Below are positions 23,831 to 51,593 of a DNA stretch of 64,000 bases, one piece after another. Made by a program: the position numbers and the translations under genes. Below the pieces are notes generated by a model, which did not search any database, was not told the DNA's origin, and saw only the letters and a list, made by a program, of their open reading frames with translations. The stretch lies in NCBI GenBank assembly GCA_022710645.1, contig JAKLGL010000002.1, positions 14,337-78,336 on the forward strand, written 5' to 3'. The stretch comes from Patescibacteria group bacterium (GTDB lineage: Bacteria > Patescibacteriota > Patescibacteriia > Magasanikbacterales > GWA2-37-8). Numbering within the stretch: the stretch's first letter is position 1; the number at the start of each line of letters is the position of its first letter.

Positions 23831-23873
23831 CTAACTTTATAACCCTGTCTACCGGCAGGCAGGTTTCAACTTT

Positions 23874-24941
23874 TTACTTTTTTATCCACTCCAAATATGC
23901 CCGTGAAAACGGCAACAACTCACCCTCGAGCAAACTTTCCGGGTCGGAAGTTTCAAAATCAGTTCGATGGTCTTTGGCCATATGATATGGATGCAATACA
24001 TAAGAACGTATTTGATTTCCCCACTCAGCACTTTTGTATTCTCCGCGCAATTCGTTTCTTTCTTTGGCCAAACGTTCTTCCTCCAACCGATGTAATTTGG
24101 CTTTGAGAATTTTCATCGCTGTTTCTTTGTTTTGTTGTTGCGAGCGTTCATTTTGACAAGACACGGAAATATTAGTTGGAATATGAACTATTCTAACAGC
24201 GCTATAGGTCGTATTCACACTTTGCCCGCCTTTGCCTCCACTCATAAAAGTATCTATGCGCAAATCTTTAGGGTCTAACTCTATTTTAACTTCTTCATCT
24301 AATTCCGGCATAATTTCTATTAATGCAAAAGAGGTGTGACGCATTTTTTCCGCATCAAAAGGAGAAATACGAACTAACCTATGAACACCGTGCTCGGATT
24401 TCAGATAGCCGTAAGCATAACGGCCTTTGATTTCCAAAGTTACGGATTTATAGCCGGCTTCTTGCCCGCGAGATTCGTCTAAAATCCTAGTTTTCCAACC
24501 CATTTTTTCACTAAAACGCAAAACCATTCGAAGCAACATTTCCGTCCAATCTTGAGCTTCTGTCCCTCCGCTACCGGCGTGCAAAGACACTATGGCGTTA
24601 TTTTTATCATAAGGACCGTTAAGCAATAAATATAGTTCGTATTCGGAAAACTCTTTTTCCAATTCTTCCGTTTGTTTTTCTATCTCTTCTTTCAAAACAG
24701 GGTCATTGGCTTGCGATAAATCCAATAAACCGTTTACTCGATCGGACAAATTTTCCCATTTATCAACTTCCTTTTTAATATCTTGATAATCTTGTGAAAT
24801 AGTTTGAGCGTTTTCAGGATTAGACCAAAAATCCGAAGCGGCCATTTCTTGCGATAATCGCTCCAGTTTATTTTTAAGTTCTTCAATCTTCAACAATTTT
24901 TTTCCTTCTTCAATTTTATTTTTTAATTCTTCTAAATTCAT
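23874..24941 (-). CDS. prfB: Peptide chain release factor 2 (contiguous ORF, no programmed frameshift)
   Basis: GGQ motif, SPF tripeptide (RF2-specific), N-terminal coiled region. Confidence 0.9.
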   Translation of the reverse strand: MNLEELKNKIEEGKKLLKIEELKNKLERLSQEMAASDFWSNPENAQTISQDYQDIKKEVDKWENLSDRVNGLLDLSQANDPVLKEEIEKQTEELEKEFSEYELYLLLNGPYDKNNAIVSLHAGSGGTEAQDWTEMLLRMVLRFSEKMGWKTRILDESRGQEAGYKSVTLEIKGRYAYGYLKSEHGVHRLVRISPFDAEKMRHTSFALIEIMPELDEEVKIELDPKDLRIDTFMSGGKGGQSVNTTYSAVRIVHIPTNISVSCQNERSQQQNKETAMKILKAKLHRLEEERLAKERNELRGEYKSAEWGNQIRSYVLHPYHMAKDHRTDFETSDPESLLEGELLPFSRAYLEWIKK

Positions 24942-26770: not shown

Positions 26771-26806
26771 ACTAACTTTATTAACCTGCCTGTCGGTAGG
26801 CAAGCT

Positions 26807-27727
26807 TTATAAACTTTCAACTCGTTGTCGCCACTTTTCATAATATTCTTTTCTCTTGTCATTTTCATGAAACTTCAACATATTATCGTTTATAACTACA
26901 CCGGGAAAATTGAAATTTTTATCGCGGGTAGACATTTTTATTCTAGCCAATTGAGCTTCTTTGGCTTGTTTTTCCATCAAATCTCCATAAACGCCTTGCC
27001 ACATTTTTTCTAAAACATTTTTTATAAATAATTTAAATCGTCCGTTCTTTATTTCTTTGGCATAGATAGATAGTTCAGAAGAAAATTGAGGTAAATAATC
27101 AAACAGCCAGTCGTTATCGGCGATTATTTTCCGACGATAATCTTCAGGGTCGTAAATCGGAATCAACACAGCTAACCAATAAATCAAATAAACGTCTTCT
27201 TGAATAATTTTTATATTTTGTAAATTTAGAGAATCTTTGGAGATAAAGAACGACAAACAAACTCCGTTTTTGTTTTTATTAACTCTTTGACCAAACAACA
27301 ACAGAATAAGATTGGAAAAAAATCTTGCCAACCACAATCTTTTCGGATCGGTTATGATAAAAAAATCAATGTCGCTTTTTTGAGTTGCCGTGCCAAACGC
27401 CAAAGAATTACAGATAAATACAGTTTTAATAAAAGGTAGCCAACTTATTTTTTTACAAGCTCTTGCCGCTTTTTTTAACTTATTTTCATTTTCCAGAAGT
27501 CTCTGTCTACGAAATTCAACATTGTTTGACTTGTTCGGCAAAAAAAAGTACCCGTCTTGAAGAAAAATTTTTTGTTCTTTGAGTAAACCCTCTATAGTTA
27601 CTTCAAAATCGCACCGGGTCGTTTTTTGTTTCCATAAAAATTCAAACAACTCTTCTCTGGTCAAAGGATAAGAAAAAAGTTCGAAGAAAGACAATGTTTT
27701 TAAGATGGCATTTTTTATTTCATCCAT
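26807..27727 (-). CDS. Hypothetical protein with a minimal nucleotidyltransferase-like motif
   Basis: GTATQKSDIDFFI resembles the Pol-beta NTase GS...D.D core. Confidence 0.5.
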   Translation of the reverse strand: MDEIKNAILKTLSFFELFSYPLTREELFEFLWKQKTTRCDFEVTIEGLLKEQKIFLQDGYFFLPNKSNNVEFRRQRLLENENKLKKAARACKKISWLPFIKTVFICNSLAFGTATQKSDIDFFIITDPKRLWLARFFSNLILLLFGQRVNKNKNGVCLSFFISKDSLNLQNIKIIQEDVYLIYWLAVLIPIYDPEDYRRKIIADNDWLFDYLPQFSSELSIYAKEIKNGRFKLFIKNVLEKMWQGVYGDLMEKQAKEAQLARIKMSTRDKNFNFPGVVINDNMLKFHENDKRKEYYEKWRQRVESL

Positions 27728-32061: not shown

Positions 32062-33582
32062 TTAGAGCTTAGAGCTTTTTGTAATTATTAAAAATAATAA
32101 CATATAACACCCCAAACAAACCAAAAGCGGTATTCGCCAATTTATTACTGAAAAACCCAGACCTCCTATTTTCTCCCCAACCATTATAACATAGCTTAGA
32201 CCCAAATTGGTAATCCAAGCCGCGACTTGACCCAACGGATAAAAAACCACTGCCAAAAAAATAGATATAAAACTGAAAAACATTAAAAAAGGAATCAACC
32301 AAATTACCAAAACATTGGCCAAAACGGAAAACAAAGACAAATAGCCAAAGCTGTAAGAAATCAAAGGAAAAGTAAAGATTGTCGCGGCCACGGTCGGTAA
32401 CATAAATTCTTTGATGATAAAATCGAATTTTTTGTGAAATTTTTTGTATTTTATTTTTTCTTCCAAAAGAGGAGTAAAATATATCAAACCTATCGTTGCC
32501 AAAAAAGATAATTGGAATCCGACATCCCAAACCAAAATAAGAGGATTGACTAGAGCTAAAAGCGTCGCCGCATAAACCAAAAGCCGAAAAACATCGCTTT
32601 TACGCCCCATTTGCTGAGCTAACAATAAAAGTCCGCCCATCAAGCCAGCGCGCACGGCCGAAGCGGAAGCTCCGGTAAAAACCACAAACAAAAAAATCAA
32701 AACCAAACAAATCCAGAAAGCTTGTTGGCGGTAAAAACCAGCATAAATCAAAACCCCCATCAAAATCCAAACAATAATGGTGATATTATAACCGGACACT
32801 GCGACAATATGAGTGATACCGGCCCGACTCAGATTATCTTTGAGCTCAGTATCAAATCCACTCCGTTCTCCGTATAAAATACCGGCAGCCAAAGTGCTTT
32901 GCGGTTCAACCCATAACCGTTGCGTCAAACCGTTTAGCTGTTTTTTGAAAGATAAAATAGCTGACATAATTCTATTGCCCCTATTTTTTTCGAGCAAATC
33001 TATTTTTTGTGGATAACACACGGAATAAATATTGCGCAAGGCCAAAAATTTTTGGTAATTGAAATTATCTTTATTTTTGGGAGATTGCAAAACACACTCA
33101 ATCTGCAATTTATCTCCATATTCATACTCCGGATAAGATTGGCCTTTAAACAAAATCTTGCCGTAAGTTTTTTTATTTATTCCTTGTTTATCAATCAATA
33201 AATCGTCAGTTATCTCATATTCACGATAACCGACTTTTTTGTTCGGCTCATCGCTAATTATACCGACTATACCGTATTTATCACCATTGTAATAAGAAAT
33301 AAAATTTTCATTTATCTCCGGCAAATGGTAAAGAACCCGACAAATTCCTAAAATAAAAAACACCCCAATCAACAAAAACAACCTGATTATCTTTTTCTCA
33401 AAAAAAATCACGACAAAGAATAATAAAACAAAAATTGAAACGTAAAAATAAAATAGTGTCGTCCGTGGAATCTCTATGATGGAAAAAAGACCTGTTGCAA
33501 AAACAAAACAAAAACAAAACGCCAATAGCGTCTTGTTTTTTGATTTAATAATAGAAGACAAAAAATCTTTAACCCCTCCCAT
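32062..33582 (-). CDS. comEC: ComEC/Rec2 DNA-internalisation competence protein, lacking the C-terminal MBL domain
   Basis: Competence-domain motif GITHIVAVSGYNITII; about 10 TM helices; N-terminal DUF4131-like region. Confidence 0.8.
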   Translation of the reverse strand: MGGVKDFLSSIIKSKNKTLLAFCFCFVFATGLFSIIEIPRTTLFYFYVSIFVLLFFVVIFFEKKIIRLFLLIGVFFILGICRVLYHLPEINENFISYYNGDKYGIVGIISDEPNKKVGYREYEITDDLLIDKQGINKKTYGKILFKGQSYPEYEYGDKLQIECVLQSPKNKDNFNYQKFLALRNIYSVCYPQKIDLLEKNRGNRIMSAILSFKKQLNGLTQRLWVEPQSTLAAGILYGERSGFDTELKDNLSRAGITHIVAVSGYNITIIVWILMGVLIYAGFYRQQAFWICLVLIFLFVVFTGASASAVRAGLMGGLLLLAQQMGRKSDVFRLLVYAATLLALVNPLILVWDVGFQLSFLATIGLIYFTPLLEEKIKYKKFHKKFDFIIKEFMLPTVAATIFTFPLISYSFGYLSLFSVLANVLVIWLIPFLMFFSFISIFLAVVFYPLGQVAAWITNLGLSYVIMVGEKIGGLGFSVINWRIPLLVCLGCYMLLFLIITKSSKL

Positions 33583-33584
33583 AT

Positions 33585-33682
33585 GACTTTATAGACTTTA
33601 TGGACTTTATGGACTTTATGGACTTTATGGACTTTATGGACTTTATGGACTTTATGGACTTTATAGACTTTATGGACTTATA
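33585..33682. repeat. Tandem repeat of the 9-bp unit GGACTTTAT (about 11 copies). It fills the entire gap between the leuS stop and the comEC start.
   Basis: Directly visible: gactttata gactttatg gactttatg ... The array abuts the comEC ATG (33580-33582) and the leuS stop (33678-33680). Confidence 0.9.
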
Positions 33683-36179
33683 TAACTATATTCACCAACT
33701 TCCCTGGTACATAAATAACTTTCTTCGGCTCTTTTCCGTCTAACCATTTGATAATCTTGAAACTGCTTAAGGCCGCATTTTTTGCGTCTTCCTCCGTTAT
33801 TTCAGCGGTGGAAAAATCTATAGTATCACGAACTTTTCCATTAACCTGAATCACTAAACTTAAATTGTTTTCTTTGGACAATTCTTCATCATATTTCGGC
33901 CAAGCGCATTCCGCTAAAATATTTTTACCGCCGATATTATTCCATATTTCTTCGCACATATGGGGCGCAAAAGGAGAAAGCATCTTCAATAAAATTTCGT
34001 ATGCGTCTTTACAAATTTGGAGTTTTTTATTCATTTCATTGACAAGCTCCATCATTTTGGCGATAGCGGTGTTAAAACGCATATTATCAATATCATCTCC
34101 GACTTTTTTGAGAGTTTGATGAACGGTTTTAGACAAATCGTCTTTAAGCTTCTGATCTTTGGTAAGCGGAGGAATTATTTTTTCTTGTAAATTCCAAACG
34201 CGTTCCAAAAATCTTTTTACCCCTACCAAACCGTTGGTATCCCATACAGCGGCTTGATCAAAAGGACCCATAAACATAATGTAAGTACGGAAAGTATCAG
34301 CACCGTATTCCTTCACTACATCATCGGGATTGATAACATTTCCTTTACTCTTGCTCATTTTTTGTCCGTCAGAAGCCAAGATCATACCGTGGGCCGTGCG
34401 TTTTTTGTAAGGTTCACTGACCGGTACCAATCCCAAATCGTGTAAAAAGATATTCCAAAAACGAGAATACAACAGATGTAACACCACATGTTCCATCCCC
34501 CCATTATACCAATCAACCGGCATCCAATATTTCAATTTATCAGGAGAGGCAAATTGTTTATCGTTTTTAGGATCAATATAACGCAAAAAATACCAGGAAC
34601 TACCGGCCCAGTTAGGCATCGTGTCGGTTTCGCGTCGCGCCTTACTTCCGCAACGGGGACATTTCACTTCCACAAATTTCTTGACTTCGGACAGAGGCGA
34701 TTCTCCGTTGTCGGTCGGCTTGTAGTCTTTGACTTTCGGCAATTCAAGCGGTAATTCTTTCTCGGAAATAGCAATCCAACCAGGATTTAATTTTTCACCT
34801 TCATTGGTAAAATTTTTGGCATTAGCGCAAGCCTGACAATAAACCAACGGAATTGGTTCACCCCAATATCTTTGACGGGAAAAAACCCAATCGCGTAATT
34901 TATAATTTATTTTTTTACCACCGGCTTGAACTTCCGGACCGGACAACCATTCACAAATTTTTTCTTGCGCTTCTTTTGTTTTTAATCCATCCAAAAAATC
35001 GGAATTAATATTTTTCCCTTCTCCCGTAAAACACTCTTTTTCTTCTTCGGTTAAATTTTTATCATCCAAAGGTTCTAAAACTTTTTTTATCGGCAAACTG
35101 TATTTTTTAGCAAACTCAAAATCGCGTTCATCGTGCGCGGGTACGGCCATTACTATCCCGGTGCCGTAATTATTCAAAACATAATCGGCTACATATACCG
35201 GAATTGATTCGCCATTTACGGGATTTACCGCTTCCAACCCAGAAAGTTTGACACCAGTCTTATCTTTGTTTAGTTCGGTGCGTTCCAAGTCGGATTTTTT
35301 CTTACTATCATTGATATATTTTTCAATCTCATTCCAATTTTTGATATATTTTTTCCATGATTGTAATTTATCGTGTTCAGGTGCGATAGAAACATAGGTC
35401 ACACCAAACAAAGTATCGGCTCTGGTGGTAAACACTTCTATTTTTTCTGTAAGTATTCCTTCCTCTTCCGTTTCCACACCAAATAAAATACTAGCTCCAA
35501 TGCTTTTGCCTATCCAATTTTCCTGTTGAGTTTTTATTTGTGGTAAATAATCCACATCTTTGAGACCATCGAGTAATTTATCGGCATATTTGGTAATAGC
35601 CAACATCCATTGTTCTTTATTACGTTTTTCTACATCTCCACCACAACGTTCACATTTACCATTTACAACTTCTTCATTGGCCAAACCAATTTTACAACTT
35701 AAACACCAATTAATAGGCATATTGGTTTTGTAAGCCAAGCCGTGTTCAAAAAATTTCAAAAACAACCACTGAGTCCAACGATAATATTCCGGAGAAGATG
35801 TATCAACTACTCTATCCCAATCAAAAGAAAAACCAATCATCTTGAGTTGTTTGACGAAATTGGCAATATTTTCTTTTGTTACTTCTGCGGGTGGTCGTCC
35901 GGTTTTGATGGCATAATTTTCCGTCGGTAAACCAAAACTATCAAAGCCTATGGGAAATAAAACATTACAGCCGTCCATGCGTTTTTTACGCGACACTACA
36001 TCAAGCGCGGTATATGGTCGCGGATGACCGACATGCAAACCAGCACCGGATGGATATGGAAATTCCACCAAAGCATAATATTTGGGCTTCTCAGAAGTAT
36101 CGGGAGCATGAAAAACACTCTTTTCTTCCCAAACTTTCTGCCATTTTTTCTCAATTTTAGCAAAATTATATGATTTCAT
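33678..36179 (-). CDS. leuS: Leucyl-tRNA synthetase
   Basis: HVGH (HIGH) and KMSKS motifs; 833 aa. Confidence 0.95.
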   Translation of the reverse strand: MKSYNFAKIEKKWQKVWEEKSVFHAPDTSEKPKYYALVEFPYPSGAGLHVGHPRPYTALDVVSRKKRMDGCNVLFPIGFDSFGLPTENYAIKTGRPPAEVTKENIANFVKQLKMIGFSFDWDRVVDTSSPEYYRWTQWLFLKFFEHGLAYKTNMPINWCLSCKIGLANEEVVNGKCERCGGDVEKRNKEQWMLAITKYADKLLDGLKDVDYLPQIKTQQENWIGKSIGASILFGVETEEEGILTEKIEVFTTRADTLFGVTYVSIAPEHDKLQSWKKYIKNWNEIEKYINDSKKKSDLERTELNKDKTGVKLSGLEAVNPVNGESIPVYVADYVLNNYGTGIVMAVPAHDERDFEFAKKYSLPIKKVLEPLDDKNLTEEEKECFTGEGKNINSDFLDGLKTKEAQEKICEWLSGPEVQAGGKKINYKLRDWVFSRQRYWGEPIPLVYCQACANAKNFTNEGEKLNPGWIAISEKELPLELPKVKDYKPTDNGESPLSEVKKFVEVKCPRCGSKARRETDTMPNWAGSSWYFLRYIDPKNDKQFASPDKLKYWMPVDWYNGGMEHVVLHLLYSRFWNIFLHDLGLVPVSEPYKKRTAHGMILASDGQKMSKSKGNVINPDDVVKEYGADTFRTYIMFMGPFDQAAVWDTNGLVGVKRFLERVWNLQEKIIPPLTKDQKLKDDLSKTVHQTLKKVGDDIDNMRFNTAIAKMMELVNEMNKKLQICKDAYEILLKMLSPFAPHMCEEIWNNIGGKNILAECAWPKYDEELSKENNLSLVIQVNGKVRDTIDFSTAEITEEDAKNAALSSFKIIKWLDGKEPKKVIYVPGKLVNIVI

Positions 36180-38488: not shown

Positions 38489-41400
38489 TTATGGGGTTGG
38501 TTCTTCAGCTGGTGGAGTCTCTTCTTCAGCTGGTGGTGTTGGTTCTTCAACTGGTGGTGTTGGTTCTTCAACTGGTGGGGTTGTGGTGACTATTTCTTCA
38601 GTAGTAGATGGTGTCTCAACCATCCCTTCTTCCCCTCCTTGTAAAGGAGGGGTCATCACCTCACCCTCGCCTCCTTCTTGAGGAGGGGCTGGGGGTGGTG
38701 TTACTACAAACTTTCTCTTTGCAATTACCATCCAATCAAAAGTAGAAGAAGATATACCACCATTTAATTCTTTAACCACAAAACCTGTGGCTAATTTTTC
38801 TTTGACATATATGCCACCACATTCACCTGTCAGAGTAATATTAACTTTGAGCGGCTGAGTTTCGTCAATGAGTTCGCAAGTATCAGTATCAAAATTGATA
38901 ATTGCTTCGCCATTTATGAGTTCTGATGAACTAGAAAATACAAATTCCGAATATGGTGATTGCATAGCAAACATTTCTTTGGTGTTACCATCGCTGGTTT
39001 GGATCCTGGTGATAAATTGACCATTTTCATCAATCGCCCATTTATTATCAACACCTGTAATATTTTTTACATTTAACAGTGCATAATTTTGTAAATCTAG
39101 ATCTCCGCCAGAATAAGTTAGACTTCCACCAGATTGTTGAACACTTAAAGTTGTAGAAACCGCTTCGCGTAAAGCCTCAATTTCCGCTTGTTGAACCTTG
39201 GCTACTTCTATTAAAAATGCCGTTAATTTTGGATAATCAACTGATTTATAGGTAGTACTTACATCAGTATAAACAAGTTCAGGTAAAACTAATTCTAATT
39301 CTTGAGCCACAACACCAATCTGTCTTCTATCATCATTTGTAGGATAAGTAGAAGTGTTCCAATAATAATATATTCCCCTTAAATTAGTTAAAGCTTCTAA
39401 AACATTTTTTTCAGCATTGATAGAAATAATTTCTTTTTTAAAACGAACATCTGATTGTGTACACGACCCAAAACTACTATATAATATGCCTGAATTATCA
39501 ACACAAACTTCATGAGTTCCGTTTCCACTTAAGTTAGTTATTTGAGCTGAGCCATTTATATAAACACCTAATTGACCAGACGCACCCGCATCGACAACTA
39601 ATCTCCAATTGGAAACATTTACAGCTCCGATACCTACTCTGGTAGCTGAGGTACCCGAACCACGGACATGCAAAGCCGGATTACTTGTTTGTCCAGAACC
39701 ACTAAAACCTATTCCTAAACTACTACTTATACTATTTGTATAATATTGACCCAAAGAAAATCCATAATTTATATTATTACTAACTTTTGCATTGTCGCCA
39801 ATTGCATAAGAAGATGTATTGTTCATTCCGATTGTTGCACCAGCTCCAAGAGCATAAGAAAAAACAGATCCTTCATCTACTATAGATTGCCAACCCAAGG
39901 CATAACTTGAACCACCTCTGCTCTTTGCTCCTTTTCCTATAGCAACTGCATGATTAACAAAATTGGGAAAACCTAACACAGTATAATAACCAGCCCAAGC
40001 CTCTTCACCAAAAGCAAATGAAGTAACACCCCCAGCTATTGCTTTATAACCAAAAGCGAAAGAATTATTACTTACTACATTACCAAATAAACCTCCACTT
40101 AAAATCTGGCTTTCTTCACCGCCGGCAAAAGAATAATATGCTAAATTTGTAGTTGTAACATTTTTACCAAAAGCTATTGAGTAGGCTCCACCAGCGTAAC
40201 TTCCTGTGCCAAGAGCAAAAGAACTTGTACCCATAGCAGTATTATTATTACCTATAGAAAAACTGCCTTGTTTTCCAAGAGCCGCAGAACCATAACCCAT
40301 TGCTATACTGCCATCATTATTAATACTAAAAACATTTATACCAGTTGAAGAAGCAAAACTAACTATAGATGAATTTCCATTTTCTGTATCTCCTACCACT
40401 CTAAAAGTTGAATTTAGACTATTCTGGCTACCCACAGCAAAAGAACCTCTTATATAAGAATTATTTGTACCTGGATGACCGACCAAAGAAACTCCAATAT
40501 TGTTTGTCGTGTCATATAGTTCTAACACACCCCACCATTTATTTCCAATATCTTGATTCATAACAAGAGCACCGCCAACACTAGATGTATTGCCAGTTAA
40601 AAGAATGCCGTCATAACTATTCATAGTATGGACATGTAATTTGGTCCAGGCAGTTGTCGTCCCAATCCCCACATTTCCATTATTATCAATTGTCATTTTT
40701 TCCGTTAAACTCCCTTCATTATTAGTATAAAAAGCTAAACGACCGGTGGAAGAGCTGGAACCATTCAAAAGACCGGCAATACTAGCAACTGTACTAGAAC
40801 TATTAGAACTAATATTTCCATAAGGATCGACACTAGAATTTATTATGGAAATAAAATCAATACCTGGTCCCATACCATCGGCAGAGCTGACGTTTCTTCT
40901 AGCCGAAACTTTAAGAGCCGTATATTTAGAATTACCGCTTGCACTTCTTTCAAAAATCGGAGCTTTATCATAAGACGTGGCTACAGTATGCAAAATTCCA
41001 CTTGGACTAGTTGTGCCAATACCAATATTTCCACCATCTTCAATGAATAAACGTGTAACTCCGTGTGTTCTAAAACCAATAGGTAAATAGCTACCCAATA
41101 CAGCATCGTTTGCAATATAATGAGCAAAACCTGTATAACCACTTGAAGATACGTTAGAAGAAATTGATAAAACTCCCGTACTACTAACAATGTCAATTGA
41201 ACCGCCTTCAACGTGTAATTTTGCCAAAGGTGTAGAAGTTCCGATACCCACCCTTCCGTTTTCTAATATATTTAAATTATTTGATCCTTCTCCGTTCGCT
41301 TGAGTATAAAAACCCAATCTTGTTCCGTTTTGTTTTATAGACCAAGTACTTGTGCCGATATTTAAATTATCCACCCAAAGAGCATTCCATCTAGTCGTAG

Positions 41401-45594: not shown

Positions 45595-45686
45595 CAAATC
45601 AAATTGTGTTGCTGTCCTACTATACATATTTTCTTTTTTGTAGCTTTACAAACTTTATAACTTTATGAACTTTATAAACTTATTTT

Positions 45687-46922
45687 TTATTTACAACAAG
45701 CTATAGGTTTGGTAACACTACAATTTACTAACCAACCGGCGCCGCCGGTAGTATTTTCAAATTCCCAAAACGCGCCCAAAGCCGACGGACTGCTGGTAGT
45801 CCAACCGATACAATCATTGGCATTTGCCGTATATCCGGGCGGACCGTTGGCAATCCAAGCCGTTCCTGCAAAATTGGAAATATCGTTGTCATCATAAATC
45901 ATTTTGATAATATCCTCGGCAGTGCAAAAATGATATCCAATATATTGACTGCGACAAATATTATCAGCGGCTCTGTAACCGCGAAGTGTCCCGGTGGAAA
46001 AATAACCGTTGGTTACCCCGGTGGTCGTACTCATTTGTAAAGCGGTAGAACCCCAACCACTAACACTGGGATCAAAACAATTATTTCCATCTTTATCACA
46101 AATCTGTCCGGCCATGATAGTGTTTGAAACCGTCAAATTTTCCGTATAAAAATTGGAGGACGTGGCGTTAACGGCGTTTAAATACGTTATTGTCGAACTG
46201 GTAATTGTGGCGTTTTCAATAGTCGAGGTTCCGATATTAGCATTGATCAAAGTAGAACTCACAATAGTCGCTTCGTCGGCAAACAAATTTACAAACCACC
46301 CTGTTAACCATTTAAAAATTGAACTTCCTAAACTAAACAAACCATTGGTTTGAGGAATAATATTTTGAACCGTAGAAGTTTGAGTCACATTTAAATTACC
46401 ATTCACATTCATATCACCAGTGGTAGTTACACTATTAAAACTGATATTTCCCTCATTGTCCGTTACCGGAATATAAGCGGTCGTTGTCGGTGTAGAAGTG
46501 GCTTCCAAACCGTTTAAATATCTAGCATTAAAAGCATATGGCACTGTTGCGATATGTTTACGCGGAGACAAAACTTGTCCTTCAACCGTAACTTGCAAAT
46601 AAATTACATCGTTATTCTTAAATATTTCCGAATCAAGCGGAGTAGTGCCTGGATCTCCGAGTAATATACTAAACAAACCACTACTTGGAGTAACAGCATT
46701 GGTTGTCGCATAAAGCGCACTTCCGCCGGTTGAGGTATTAAACAATTCAAAGGTCATTGTCAAAGAAGTACTGGCGGAAATTCCGTTTTCCAAAATTTTA
46801 CCTTGATAACTGATAATTGAAGGTGGATTGGCAGCATCAGATTTAAGAGACAGTAAAACAAAAACTGTCACTACTGTCAGCAGTCCTATGACTAGTTTAA
46901 GTTTTGTACTGTAATTACCCAT
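45687..46922 (-). CDS. Secreted protein (411 aa), shorter paralog sharing the NLFADEATIVSST motif and the C-terminal Cys-rich ...CCK domain
   Basis: Signal anchor. C-terminal alignment to the 890-aa protein (GPPGYTA.ANDC.G.TTSS...LGAFWE...CCK). Confidence 0.75.
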   Translation of the reverse strand: MGNYSTKLKLVIGLLTVVTVFVLLSLKSDAANPPSIISYQGKILENGISASTSLTMTFELFNTSTGGSALYATTNAVTPSSGLFSILLGDPGTTPLDSEIFKNNDVIYLQVTVEGQVLSPRKHIATVPYAFNARYLNGLEATSTPTTTAYIPVTDNEGNISFNSVTTTGDMNVNGNLNVTQTSTVQNIIPQTNGLFSLGSSIFKWLTGWFVNLFADEATIVSSTLINANIGTSTIENATITSSTITYLNAVNATSSNFYTENLTVSNTIMAGQICDKDGNNCFDPSVSGWGSTALQMSTTTGVTNGYFSTGTLRGYRAADNICRSQYIGYHFCTAEDIIKMIYDDNDISNFAGTAWIANGPPGYTANANDCIGWTTSSPSALGAFWEFENTTGGAGWLVNCSVTKPIACCK

Positions 46923-47046
46923 ATTTAAATTGCAAGATTACAAGATTGCAATATTTAAAGATTAATAGCTTTTGCCGATTATTACTGTTCCCTCCTTGGA
47001 TGCATTTGGAACATCCAAAAGTAATAATCGCTAATAAACTATCAAC

Positions 47047-47259
47047 TTATTGTAAAAGACGATCAATACTCCCCTGAGTCAAAATATGAGCCAGCGATGT
47101 AAGTGTTTGTAATGTCGGATTAACATTAAAACCACCTTCCAATTTTGCCAAATTGGAAAGCCTCAAATCCGCACTGCGCGCCAACATTTCTTGAGATATC
47201 CCCTTGCTCAAACGTAAACGCTTGAGATTGGCGCTAAATTTTTTTGTATCTACTTTCAC
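47047..47259 (-). CDS. XRE-family (Cro/CI-type) HTH transcriptional regulator, 70 aa
   Basis: LKRLRLSKGISQEMLA helix-turn-helix. Located directly upstream of, and co-oriented with, the adhesin-like gene array. Confidence 0.7.
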   Translation of the reverse strand: MKVDTKKFSANLKRLRLSKGISQEMLARSADLRLSNLAKLEGGFNVNPTLQTLTSLAHILTQGSIDRLLQ

Positions 47260-47848
47260 ACGAATAACTTATATATCAATATAATGATAGTTATTAATAG
47301 AAAGCTATTTTTAGATATCAATTAATAAATAGCATTTTATAACTATCAATATATAGAATTATAATATCATAAAAATCGATTTTTCTGAAAATAAGAGGTG
47401 TGGATAACTATAAGTTTATAAAGTTTACCCCGTTAAATCCCCGTAGGGGTCTGCCTTTGGCAGAATTTAACAGGGGTAAATAAAGTCTATAAAGTCCGTA
47501 AAGTCCCAAAAATATCAACTAAACGACCGAAATGATCGGTAGAATTTTCAATTTTTAATTTTACAATTTTTAATGAATTTTCAATTTACATTAATTTGTC
47601 ATTCCCGCCTACGAGCGGGAATCCAGTGGTTTTTTTTATATTTCCTGGATCCCTGCTGCAGTTTATCCGCCTATGGCTGGCAGGGATGACACTGCAATCC
47701 CCCATCGGGGATCCCTCTTTTTTTACTATGATTATATTGATATCAATATAAAGATATATACCAAACAACAAAAAATCCCGTTTTCACGGGACTTTATGGA
47801 CCTTATAAACTTTATGGACCTGCCTACCGGCAGGCAGGCTTTACAGAC
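47260..47848. other. Complex structured intergenic region. It contains AT-rich ATCAATAT-type palindromes, one DnaA-box 9-mer (TGTGGATAA), inverted arrays of the 9-bp ACTTTATRG repeat (47481-47507 and 47789-47819) bracketing a roughly 280 bp segment with AATTTTCAATTT iterons, two strong hairpin terminators, and a copy of the CCTGCCTACCGGCAGGCAGG palindrome at 47827-47846.
   Basis: All elements read directly from the sequence. Confidence 0.6.
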
Positions 47849-48169
47849 TTAAATATTTTTATCAATCATTCCTTGTAATTTTTCTTTTTGCACTCCTCCG
47901 GTAACGGTTTCTACCGGTTGGCCGCCTTTAAAAACAATAAAAGTCGGAATACTCATGACATTATATTGACTGGCCACATCACTGTTTTCATCAACATTAC
48001 ATTTAACTATTTTGATATCCTTATCTTTGTTATCTTCTATCAATTCTCCCAAAACTCCGAGCATCATTTGGCAGGGTCCGCACCACGGAGCCCAAAAATC
48101 CACTAATACAGGAATATTTGAGTCTAAAACTTCCTCCTTAAAATTAGTTGAGCTTACATTATTTTCCAT
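47849..48169 (-). CDS. trxA: Thioredoxin
   Basis: WAPWCGPCQ active site. Confidence 0.9.
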   Translation of the reverse strand: MENNVSSTNFKEEVLDSNIPVLVDFWAPWCGPCQMMLGVLGELIEDNKDKDIKIVKCNVDENSDVASQYNVMSIPTFIVFKGGQPVETVTGGVQKEKLQGMIDKNI

Positions 48170-50825: not shown

Positions 50826-51593
50826 ATGAAAATAATCACTAAAAATAATTTTGAACTCAAACCAAATACTTTTGTGTTGGTTGATAAGCCGGTAAACTGG
50901 ACTAGTTTTGATGTGGTTGGTTATTTACGAAAACTATTTCGCCAACAATATCCGGATTTAAAAAAAGTCAAAGTTGGTCATGCGGGCACACTTGATCCTT
51001 TTGCTACCGGACTTTTGATTGTTGCTTTGGGACGCGAAGCTACGCGAGAAATTGAAAATTTCAAAAACTTAAATAAAACTTACGAAGCGACTATCAAACT
51101 TGGGGAAATATCTAACACGGGAGATAATACAGGTAATATTCAACCTTACAAATTAAGTGGCTTAAACAAAATAATCTTCAATCTAAAAACCTGCCTGCCG
51201 GCAGGCAGATCTAAAATCTTAAATAAAACTGGACAGACACCCGCCAAAACTGAAGTAGAAAAAGTACTTGCTAAATTTATTGGCCCTCAAAAACAAACTC
51301 CTCCAATGTTTTCCGCCAAAAAAGTCAATGGTCAGAGACTTTACGATTTAGCACGCAAAGGTAAAGAAATAAAAAGAAAAGCAAACAAAATTGAAATTTT
51401 TCATATAAACATTTTAGACTATCAATATCCATTTCTAACAATCAAAGTTATCTGCTCCCCCGGCACCTATATCCGCACCTTAGCCGAAGATATCGGAAAA
51501 AAACTCAAAATCGGAGCATACTGCCAAGAACTGAAACGTACCGACATAGGACATTACAAATTGAATGATGCCATAGAATTACCTTTGAAATAA
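50826..51593 (+). CDS. truB: tRNA pseudouridine(55) synthase TruB, with a roughly 25 aa insertion relative to the canonical TruB spacing that coincides with an embedded palindromic repeat
   Basis: GHAGTLDP catalytic-Asp motif; the length and order of motifs match TruB. Confidence 0.9.
   Translation: MKIITKNNFELKPNTFVLVDKPVNWTSFDVVGYLRKLFRQQYPDLKKVKVGHAGTLDPFATGLLIVALGREATREIENFKNLNKTYEATIKLGEISNTGDNTGNIQPYKLSGLNKIIFNLKTCLPAGRSKILNKTGQTPAKTEVEKVLAKFIGPQKQTPPMFSAKKVNGQRLYDLARKGKEIKRKANKIEIFHINILDYQYPFLTIKVICSPGTYIRTLAEDIGKKLKIGAYCQELKRTDIGHYKLNDAIELPLK

Follow-up and report, generated by a model that had tools for sequence, protein, structure and literature searches.

A length-variable 9-bp repeat between leuS and comEC of Candidatus Magasanikbacteria and its plausible place in a dispersed AAAGT-core repeat family

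The spacer between leuS and comEC in a Candidatus Magasanikbacteria genome is best explained, with middling confidence, as a slippage-prone short tandem repeat that represents a local expansion of a dispersed family of gene-boundary repeats with the core AAAGTYY. Among the matches listed, this family is carried by this genome and by many Patescibacteria, Bacteroidota and Ignavibacteria. The single leuS-comEC array is ordinary; it is the family that is apparently new. We refer to the whole 64-kb stretch of DNA that was analysed as the window.

Results and discussion

The top TRF score in the window (176) belongs to positions 33585-33679, with a period of 9, 10.6 copies and 96% matches. The preliminary description had counted eleven copies of the 9-mer, which we resolve into a degenerate first unit and ten full units. 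On the coding (minus) strand the order is TAA (the leuS stop) GTC, one CATAAAGTC, one TATAAAGTC, seven copies of CATAAAGTC, a final TATAAAGTC, AT and the comEC ATG. The repeat takes up the whole 95-bp spacer, as had been claimed from a reading that left the gene strand (minus) implicit, and the leuS stop codon sits inside the degenerate first unit. A protein identical to the ComEC of the window is named in its source as ComEC of Candidatus Magasanikbacteria. The array RNA of the spacer has no predicted structure (MFE 0 kcal/mol), and no complementary partner or inverted arm for the array was found nearby. A coding tripeptide repeat at comEC was ruled out by an in-frame stop codon three codons upstream of the ATG.

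Table 1 Repeat arrays, associated palindromes and flanking genes in the window
Feature	Position	Strand	Remarks
Mini-cluster: AAAAGT AAAAAGTTGAAA, 20-bp hairpin, GTTATAAAGTTAG, TTG start	23831-23881	-	RF-1 to next gene
Mini-cluster: TTGAAAGTTTATAAAG (holds stop of 306-aa gene), 20-bp hairpin, TTAATAAAGTTAGT, ATG of Wzy_C gene	26771-26820	-	
comEC/rec2 (DNA-uptake channel)	32062-33582	-	Pfam Competence (2e-52), DUF4131; ATG 2 nt past last unit
9-bp tandem array, full unit (C/T)ATAAAGTC	33583-33682	-	TRF and direct reading; degenerate first unit, then ten full units
TATAAA, -10-like hexamer	33588-33593	-	Formed by T-variant last unit; 5 nt upstream of comEC ATG
leuS (leucyl-tRNA synthetase)	33678-36179	-	Pfam tRNA-synt_1_2, tRNA-synt_1, Anticodon_1; TAA stop part of first unit
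Array TAAGTTT ATAAAGTTC ATAAAGTT ATAAAGTTT GTAAAGC	45643-45684	-	Stop of 411-aa gene to start of 890-aa gene
Two units ATAAGTTT ATAAAGTTTA	47410-47427	+	Directly left of 48-bp palindromic element
48-bp palindromic element	47428-47475	.	Same-orientation repeat units on both flanks
Array ATAAAGTCT ATAAAGTCC GTAAAGTCC	47480-47506	+	Inverted partner of 47789-47821 array
Array ATAAAGTTT ATAAGGTCC ATAAAGTCC	47789-47821	-	Downstream of trxA stop; then terminator-like hairpin and T run
20-bp hairpin CCTGCCTGCCGGTAGGCAGG	47819-47838	.	Inserted within one repeat unit, GTAAAG/TCC

Eight public contigs encode exactly the ComEC of the window (100% identical). Two JGI contigs with the identical ComEC have the same 11-unit array as the window, and one ENA contig with the identical ComEC has 7 units, an allele that comes from one short-read assembly. 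The copy number had been expected to be variable, and it is not invariant: alleles of 7 and 11 units exist among contigs with an identical ComEC. Between the two alleles, all that changes is the number of identical CATAAAGTC units in the internal run (3 vs 7), the first two units and the last unit being unchanged. Such a change, limited to the homogeneous CATAAAGTC block, is the pattern that slipped-strand mispairing produces. The three shorter arrays of the window are identical in the available strains, the 45643-45684 array being invariant in L514 and L515. A scan of one metagenome collection for a 24-mer at the comEC junction gave no match, although the JGI contigs hold this 24-mer.

Chance or faulty assembly is hardly credible as the source of the array. 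Short-read assemblers can mis-size repeats, and two further assemblies (one Logan contig and one SPAdes contig) do terminate within the array. The 11-unit array is however shared by the window and two independent JGI assemblies, and its 95 bp would fit within a 141-nt k-mer, the size that the contig name (k141) of the 7-unit assembly suggests. The chance reading is countered by motif counts far over shuffled expectation. With up to two mismatches allowed, the two-unit pattern ATAAAGTNNATAAAGT has 19 matches in the window against 2.1 expected and none of 100 shuffles reaches 19; the AAAGT-core repeats in the window are therefore not due to chance.

Relatives with a ComEC of 62-72% identity retain the synteny of leuS and comEC, which allowed the same junction to be compared. 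In L509 the junction reads TAAAGTGGAAAGTCAAAAGTTATAAAGCTAT-ATG (TAAAGTGGAAAGTCAAAAGTTATAAAGCTATATG), 28 bp in which four AAAGY cores follow one another at a spacing of 7-8 bp. L508 has TAAGTTCGTAAAGTGA followed by an inserted hairpin pair, GTCATCCC...GGGGATCCAG. The L511 junction consists of TAAAAGTTGAAAGTTGAAAGC, inserted hairpins and then CTAAAGTCCAAATAT-ATG (TAAAAGTTGAAAGTTGAAAGC ... CTAAAGTCCAAATATATG). L513 carries an inserted DUF559 endonuclease gene with hairpins on either side, and retains no more than GAAAAAGTCTTT-ATG. The four related lineages thus have 1-4 AAAGY units per end of the junction. A second junction, between the 306-aa gene and the Wzy_C gene, is also conserved, the L511 orthologue ending in TTATAAAGTTTATAAAGTGA. 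The presence of AAAGY units at both junctions in relatives implies that a small cluster at these gene boundaries is ancestral and that the long array is a species-level expansion. As judged from these junction sequences, the long leuS-comEC array most likely grew in place. Slipped-strand mispairing acting on the ancestral cluster of AAAGY units would account for this growth, and the array may persist at this site since it is harmless or mildly useful there. Other short A/T-rich repeats abound in the intergenic DNA of the relatives, and repeat formation is therefore general in this lineage.

The insertion in L513 (9531-10000) comprises a 111-aa DUF559/MTES_1575 (Vsr-like) endonuclease gene between two similar hairpins, CCCTCTCCTTTATAAGGAGAGGG and CCTTCTCCTTTGTAAGGAGAAGG, and looks like a small selfish cassette. 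The window itself has REP-like hairpins of the type GTCATYCCNGC...GCNGGRATCCAG as an inverted pair at 47596-47692. Hairpins of this type are also inserted at the leuS-comEC junction of relatives (L508 3240-3325, L511 9745-9800), directly after AAAGTGACACGAAGT, and lie beside arrays in the Roizmanbacteria-like loci L016 and L083.

The only -10-like box upstream of comEC is the TATAAA in the last unit. This box is one hexamer lacking a -35 element, and both alleles, of 7 and of 11 units, have kept it. The same arrangement precedes the gene downstream of RF-1 (23835-23840, TATAAAGTTAG-TTG), and similar ones are present before the Wzy_C gene and in L509; the relatives L508, L511 and L513 have not kept the geometry seen at comEC. 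A coding-strand scan for a sigma-70 promoter inside the array gave nothing over shuffled expectation. Among the genes of the window, 2 of 52 have a Shine-Dalgarno-like pentamer within 15 nt of the start, and the upstream regions are A/T-rich. The 15 nt next to start codons are about twofold richer in hexamers resembling a -10 box than the sequence further upstream, an enrichment which hints at leaderless transcripts. The TATAAA supplied by the T-variant last unit is a possible promoter, and may drive a leaderless comEC transcript. The A-rich, wholly unstructured RNA of the array would keep the comEC start region open; this would be expected to matter for initiation because the genome is almost without Shine-Dalgarno sites. 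Changes in copy number are expected to be nearly neutral, and not to act as a switch, since the identical units leave some 35-60 bp beside the comEC start unchanged.

Immediately following the comEC ATG there is a GGAGG motif (window 33570-33582), also present in the orthologues of L508, L509 and L511. It is kept at the nucleotide level while the codons differ (ATGGGAGGGG vs ATGAGGAGGG, Gly-Gly vs Arg-Arg), and this conservation of nucleotides through a change of codons suggests selection on an RNA or DNA motif rather than on the protein.

The leuS-comEC array is accompanied by related repeats elsewhere in the window (Table 1). The three shorter arrays listed in the preliminary description, at 45643-45684, 47480-47506 (opposite orientation) and 47789-47821, are real, and the two mini-clusters at 23831-23881 and 26771-26820 are further clusters beyond that list. 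The AAAGY units of the window follow the stops of leuS, trxA, RF-1 and the 306-aa gene. The 890-aa gene downstream of the 45643-45684 array is a large gene adjoining a fibre-like protein. The arrays at 47480-47506 and 47789-47821 are predicted to pair across approximately 280 bp (fold of 47400-47850, z = -7.9). A 20-bp perfect hairpin, CCTGCCTRCCGRYAGGCAGG, was observed in four copies, at 23844-23863, 26785-26804, 47819-47838 and 51190-51209. Three of the four lie within or between AAAGT units at gene junctions, the fourth being inside a 255-aa ORF. The earlier suggestion that the repeat is the usual neighbour of palindromes is borne out by these three hairpins and by the 48-bp palindrome, all of which sit inside or between AAAGT units.

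Several other features of the window were noted. At gathering thresholds, Rfam identified tRNAs only in the whole window; a permissive RNA-family scan of 46900-47900 gave sub-threshold matches only, to the rimP leader and RsmY. A replication origin or DnaA-box array was rejected: the GC skew has no switch in the window, nor is the unit a DnaA box. A lone perfect DnaA-box-like TGTGGATAA is located at 47399-47407. A 70-aa HTH_3 (XRE-type) gene (47047-47259, minus strand) has an AT-rich upstream region with TATCAATATA/ATTGATATCAAT palindromes (47260-47410, 47727-47756), which are probable operators. A 21-bp tandem repeat at 38492-38583 (4.4 copies, score 128) encodes a seven-residue repeat close to the 3′ end of a 1531-aa Peptidase_S74/PTL_trimer fibre-like gene.

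A scan for ATAAAGTNN repeated three times, with one genome per species, located at least 120 stretches. The matches listed come from Patescibacteria of many classes, Bacteroidales and other Bacteroidota, Ignavibacteria and a few others, and several of these genomes contributed many loci each. Raw database counts were rejected as proof of a special unit: three repeats of the real 7-mer matched 77 stretches in viral contigs, where composition-matched controls matched 70, at least 120 and at least 120. Since raw counts are uninformative, the argument for a specific family draws on three other properties, namely the YY bias, the intergenic location and the secondary arrays. The variable dinucleotides are YY in 284 of 311 cases and about 90% of the arrays are intergenic, both among the bacterial matches listed. 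Viral matches to the same 7-mer have AA, AG or TG at the variable positions, and 46% of them are inside ORFs. The same bacterial loci also contain period-9 arrays that were unselected by the search; 16 of 36 of these have the AAAGT core, compared to 3.2% of random 9-mers.

The gene context of the arrays was assessed with ORF calls from a simple longest-ORF heuristic, for 120 loci listed from other genomes. The orientation of the arrays relative to the flanking genes was ++ in 34 cases, -- in 23, -+ in 18 and +- in 8, and gene ends and gene starts are abutted equally often. Terminator function was discounted, as arrays are commoner between divergent (18) than convergent (8) genes at these loci. 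Arrays are directed away from the nearest gene, with a median gap of 18 bp at their 5′ side and 81 bp at their 3′ side (49 vs 19 arrays). This holds whether the nearest gene ends or starts at the array. An all-against-all BLAST of 849 ORFs from the 120 listed loci revealed no shared gene family next to the arrays. Related genomes have their arrays at different positions. On the 3′ side of arrays the inverted motif is enriched (7.9 vs 1.4 per kb), and an inverted partner is present within 150 bp in 37 of 96 arrays (39%) vs 6.4% of control windows. In Odoribacter and Butyricimonas two arms of 40-60 bp surround a hairpin-rich core. Literature searches on the repeat strings and on CPR tandem repeats found nothing relevant; the AAAGT-core repeats form a dispersed family that is apparently undescribed in the literature searched.

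We note that the same Bacteroidota genomes (loci L078 1371-1534, L020 1-111 and others) also contain many unrelated heptamer arrays, for example GCTGGAT repeated 23 times beside a nonamer array. TRF located 74 period-7 arrays in approximately 0.9 Mb, an STRR-like landscape outside cyanobacteria. Locus L016, from a MAG labelled Gammaproteobacteria (ERP119705_co15_489), is orthologous to the Roizmanbacteria MAG locus L083, and in both the same promoter-like TTGACA-17-TATAAA overlaps the array. The L016 contig is probably mis-binned CPR DNA.

Two members of the family lie inside rRNA genes. In a Saccharibacteria MAG (L067, 269-395) a 127-nt insertion occupies a hairpin loop of 16S rRNA, at Rfam model positions of about 1158-1162, and is predicted to fold into one long hairpin (ΔG -64 kcal/mol, z = -10). 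In Campbellbacteria CP011215 (L029, about 1020-1135) a 111-nt insertion in the 5′ domain of 23S rRNA is likewise predicted to form one long hairpin. Both insertions sit exactly in rRNA hairpin loops and extend rRNA helices. Like known rRNA intervening sequences and CPR rRNA insertions, they are AT-rich hairpin insertions at the tips of 16S or 23S helices, and the family supplies two such CPR examples. The likeness concerns relatives of the array, not the leuS-comEC array.

The inverted arms raise the question of mobility. The arrays could be arms, or leftover solo arms, of a mobile palindromic element (MITE- or REPIN-like), the leuS-comEC array being a solo arm that later expanded; we regard this as possible but rather unlikely. 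An element of this kind would propagate from one intergenic site to another and also enter the tips of rRNA helices. Many copies per genome, positions that differ between related genomes and insertions of 127 and 111 nt exactly in rRNA hairpin loops all fit such an element. So do the enrichment of the inverted motif 3′ of arrays, the excess of inverted partners over controls and the inverted arms around a hairpin-rich core, seen in Odoribacter and Butyricimonas and also at 47480-47821 of the window. However, no defined termini, target-site duplication or transposase was found, and the 849 nearby ORFs (about 8 kb around each array) include neither a TnsA/B/C-like protein nor a common neighbour family. 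A MITE or REPIN is expected to have two inverted arms and a cognate transposase; the leuS-comEC array has no inverted partner, and no such transposase is encoded within the approximately 8 kb around each array. AAAGY units are present at the leuS-comEC junction in four of four relatives, a better fit to local growth than to insertion.

Homology to Tn7 ends was considered and rejected. The 9-mer ATAAAGTCT does occur twice in Tn7R, inside inward-pointing 22-bp TnsB sites. A Tn7-like end is characterised by a TGT terminus, TnsB sites of about 22 bp and tnsABC; the arrays have no 22-bp site structure and no TGT terminus, and no TnsA/B/C homologue is located near any of them. The shared 9-mer is real and is treated as a coincidence. 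LytTR sites, a CsrA GGA sponge, boxA and an RNase E site were also set aside as parallels, owing to a mismatch in spacing, strand or taxon.

By analogy with the hmw1A adhesin gene, the repeats could be contingency or rheostat loci, array length tuning comEC and the 45.6-kb array tuning the 890-aa gene; we consider this unlikely. In Haemophilus influenzae a 5′ UTR repeat, (ATCTTTC)n, tunes the HMW1A adhesin, and RNase III cuts the long RNA hairpin of which the repeat supplies one arm (PMC12721329). It provides a precedent for an intergenic repeat acting through transcription and RNA structure (PMC12721329). The leuS-comEC array is likewise a tandem repeat upstream of a gene with copy-number polymorphism in nature, as is typical of contingency loci, and the hmw hairpin recalls the inverted-arm hairpins of the family. 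Two arrays are also directly upstream of comEC and of the large gene beside a fibre-like protein, and copy number differs between natural strains. Unlike hmw, however, the comEC array has no complementary arm nearby and its RNA has no predicted hairpin, and the sequence near the start codon is unaltered by copy number. The arrays at 45.6 kb and 47 kb show no variation among the available strains. Housekeeping genes are followed by the same units, which also occur in rRNA, and at the 120 listed loci gene ends are abutted as often as starts; no link of the family to surface, virulence or contingency genes was found.

The preliminary description had proposed that the array serves phase variation or regulation of competence and surface genes. 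This proposal is not supported: the units follow leuS, trxA, RF-1 and the 306-aa gene, there is no common neighbour family, and two arrays are in rRNA genes. Nor do the arrays show the tie to gene starts that had been supposed, given that the 120 listed loci abut gene ends with equal frequency.

Binding of a protein offers another analogy. The units could be sites for a sequence-specific protein (ribbon-helix-helix or nucleoid-associated) that coats the array cooperatively, which we judge improbable. The core AAAGTYY with two free positions resembles a recognition site and is conserved across phyla, and both direct and inverted arrangements occur. Omega-type repressors are known with direct and inverted repeat arrangements. 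The centromere of pCXC100 consists of nine uninterrupted, non-palindromic 9-bp direct repeats bound by the ribbon-helix-helix protein ParB (PMC3074162). The 9-bp period had been held not to match helical phasing; this is no argument against binding, since the pCXC100 repeats are themselves unspaced 9-bp repeats (PMC3074162). The 10-11 units of the leuS-comEC array, ten of them contiguous full 9-bp units, have the geometry of the pCXC100 centromere and resemble the arrays of unspaced 7-9-bp repeats bound by pCXC100 ParB, omega and ParG. Those arrays differ in lying beside the gene for their binding protein on plasmids, whereas here the array is between two chromosomal housekeeping genes, leuS and comEC, and the family is dispersed. 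Beside the arrays there is no gene for a candidate protein, and the 120 listed loci have no common neighbour family. The spacing of the cores varies from 7 to 9 bp in relatives, and arrays inside rRNA genes form RNA helices, neither of which favours a bound protein.

The closest known kind of repeat is, by analogy, the cyanobacterial STRR. These are dispersed intergenic short tandem repeats, found for example between the co-oriented hupS and hupL, and can form hairpins; transcript stability and translational coupling have been proposed as their role (PMC2670836). The AAAGT-core repeats are similar in having a short unit in tandem, dispersed over many intergenic sites, and in their capacity for hairpins. 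The same unit is present at many loci, with four arrays and two mini-clusters in the 64-kb window, and is intergenic also between co-oriented genes (leuS/comEC and the 411-aa/890-aa pair). They differ from STRR in that the unit is 9 bp with an AAAGTYY core, rather than a 7-mer, and that one unit recurs across phyla. The hosts are Patescibacteria (here Candidatus Magasanikbacteria), Bacteroidota and Ignavibacteria, not heterocystous cyanobacteria, the hosts of the heptanucleotide repeats. The arrays moreover point away from the neighbouring gene, often have inverted arms and occur in rRNA helix tips. The leuS-comEC array is STRR-like and is not a member of STRR1-3.

Local growth by slippage, the explanation we favour for the leuS-comEC array, does not on its own explain the recurrence of ATAAAGTYY in very distant phyla. 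Nor does slippage explain why arrays point away from the neighbouring gene, or why 39% of them have inverted partners. A more speculative hypothesis, which we think has a rather low chance of being correct, is that ATAAAGTYY arrays are the signature of one trans-acting system common to Patescibacteria and the Bacteroidota/Ignavibacteria group. This would be a binding protein, nuclease or transposase-like activity that recognises AAAGTYY. It would build inverted-arm hairpins at gene boundaries, attract small palindromes and seed rRNA helix expansions, with the leuS-comEC array as one of its footprints.

Conclusions

The leuS-comEC repeat is a natural length polymorphism at which assemblies break and which could be used to mark strains. 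A -10 box inside the repeat may provide the start for comEC in this Shine-Dalgarno-poor CPR bacterium. Of wider interest is the recurrence of one 9-bp unit with a fixed core as an intergenic family in very distant, mostly uncultivated phyla. A common factor behind the family, if true, would bear on the role of STRR-type repeats and on the origin of CPR rRNA insertions.
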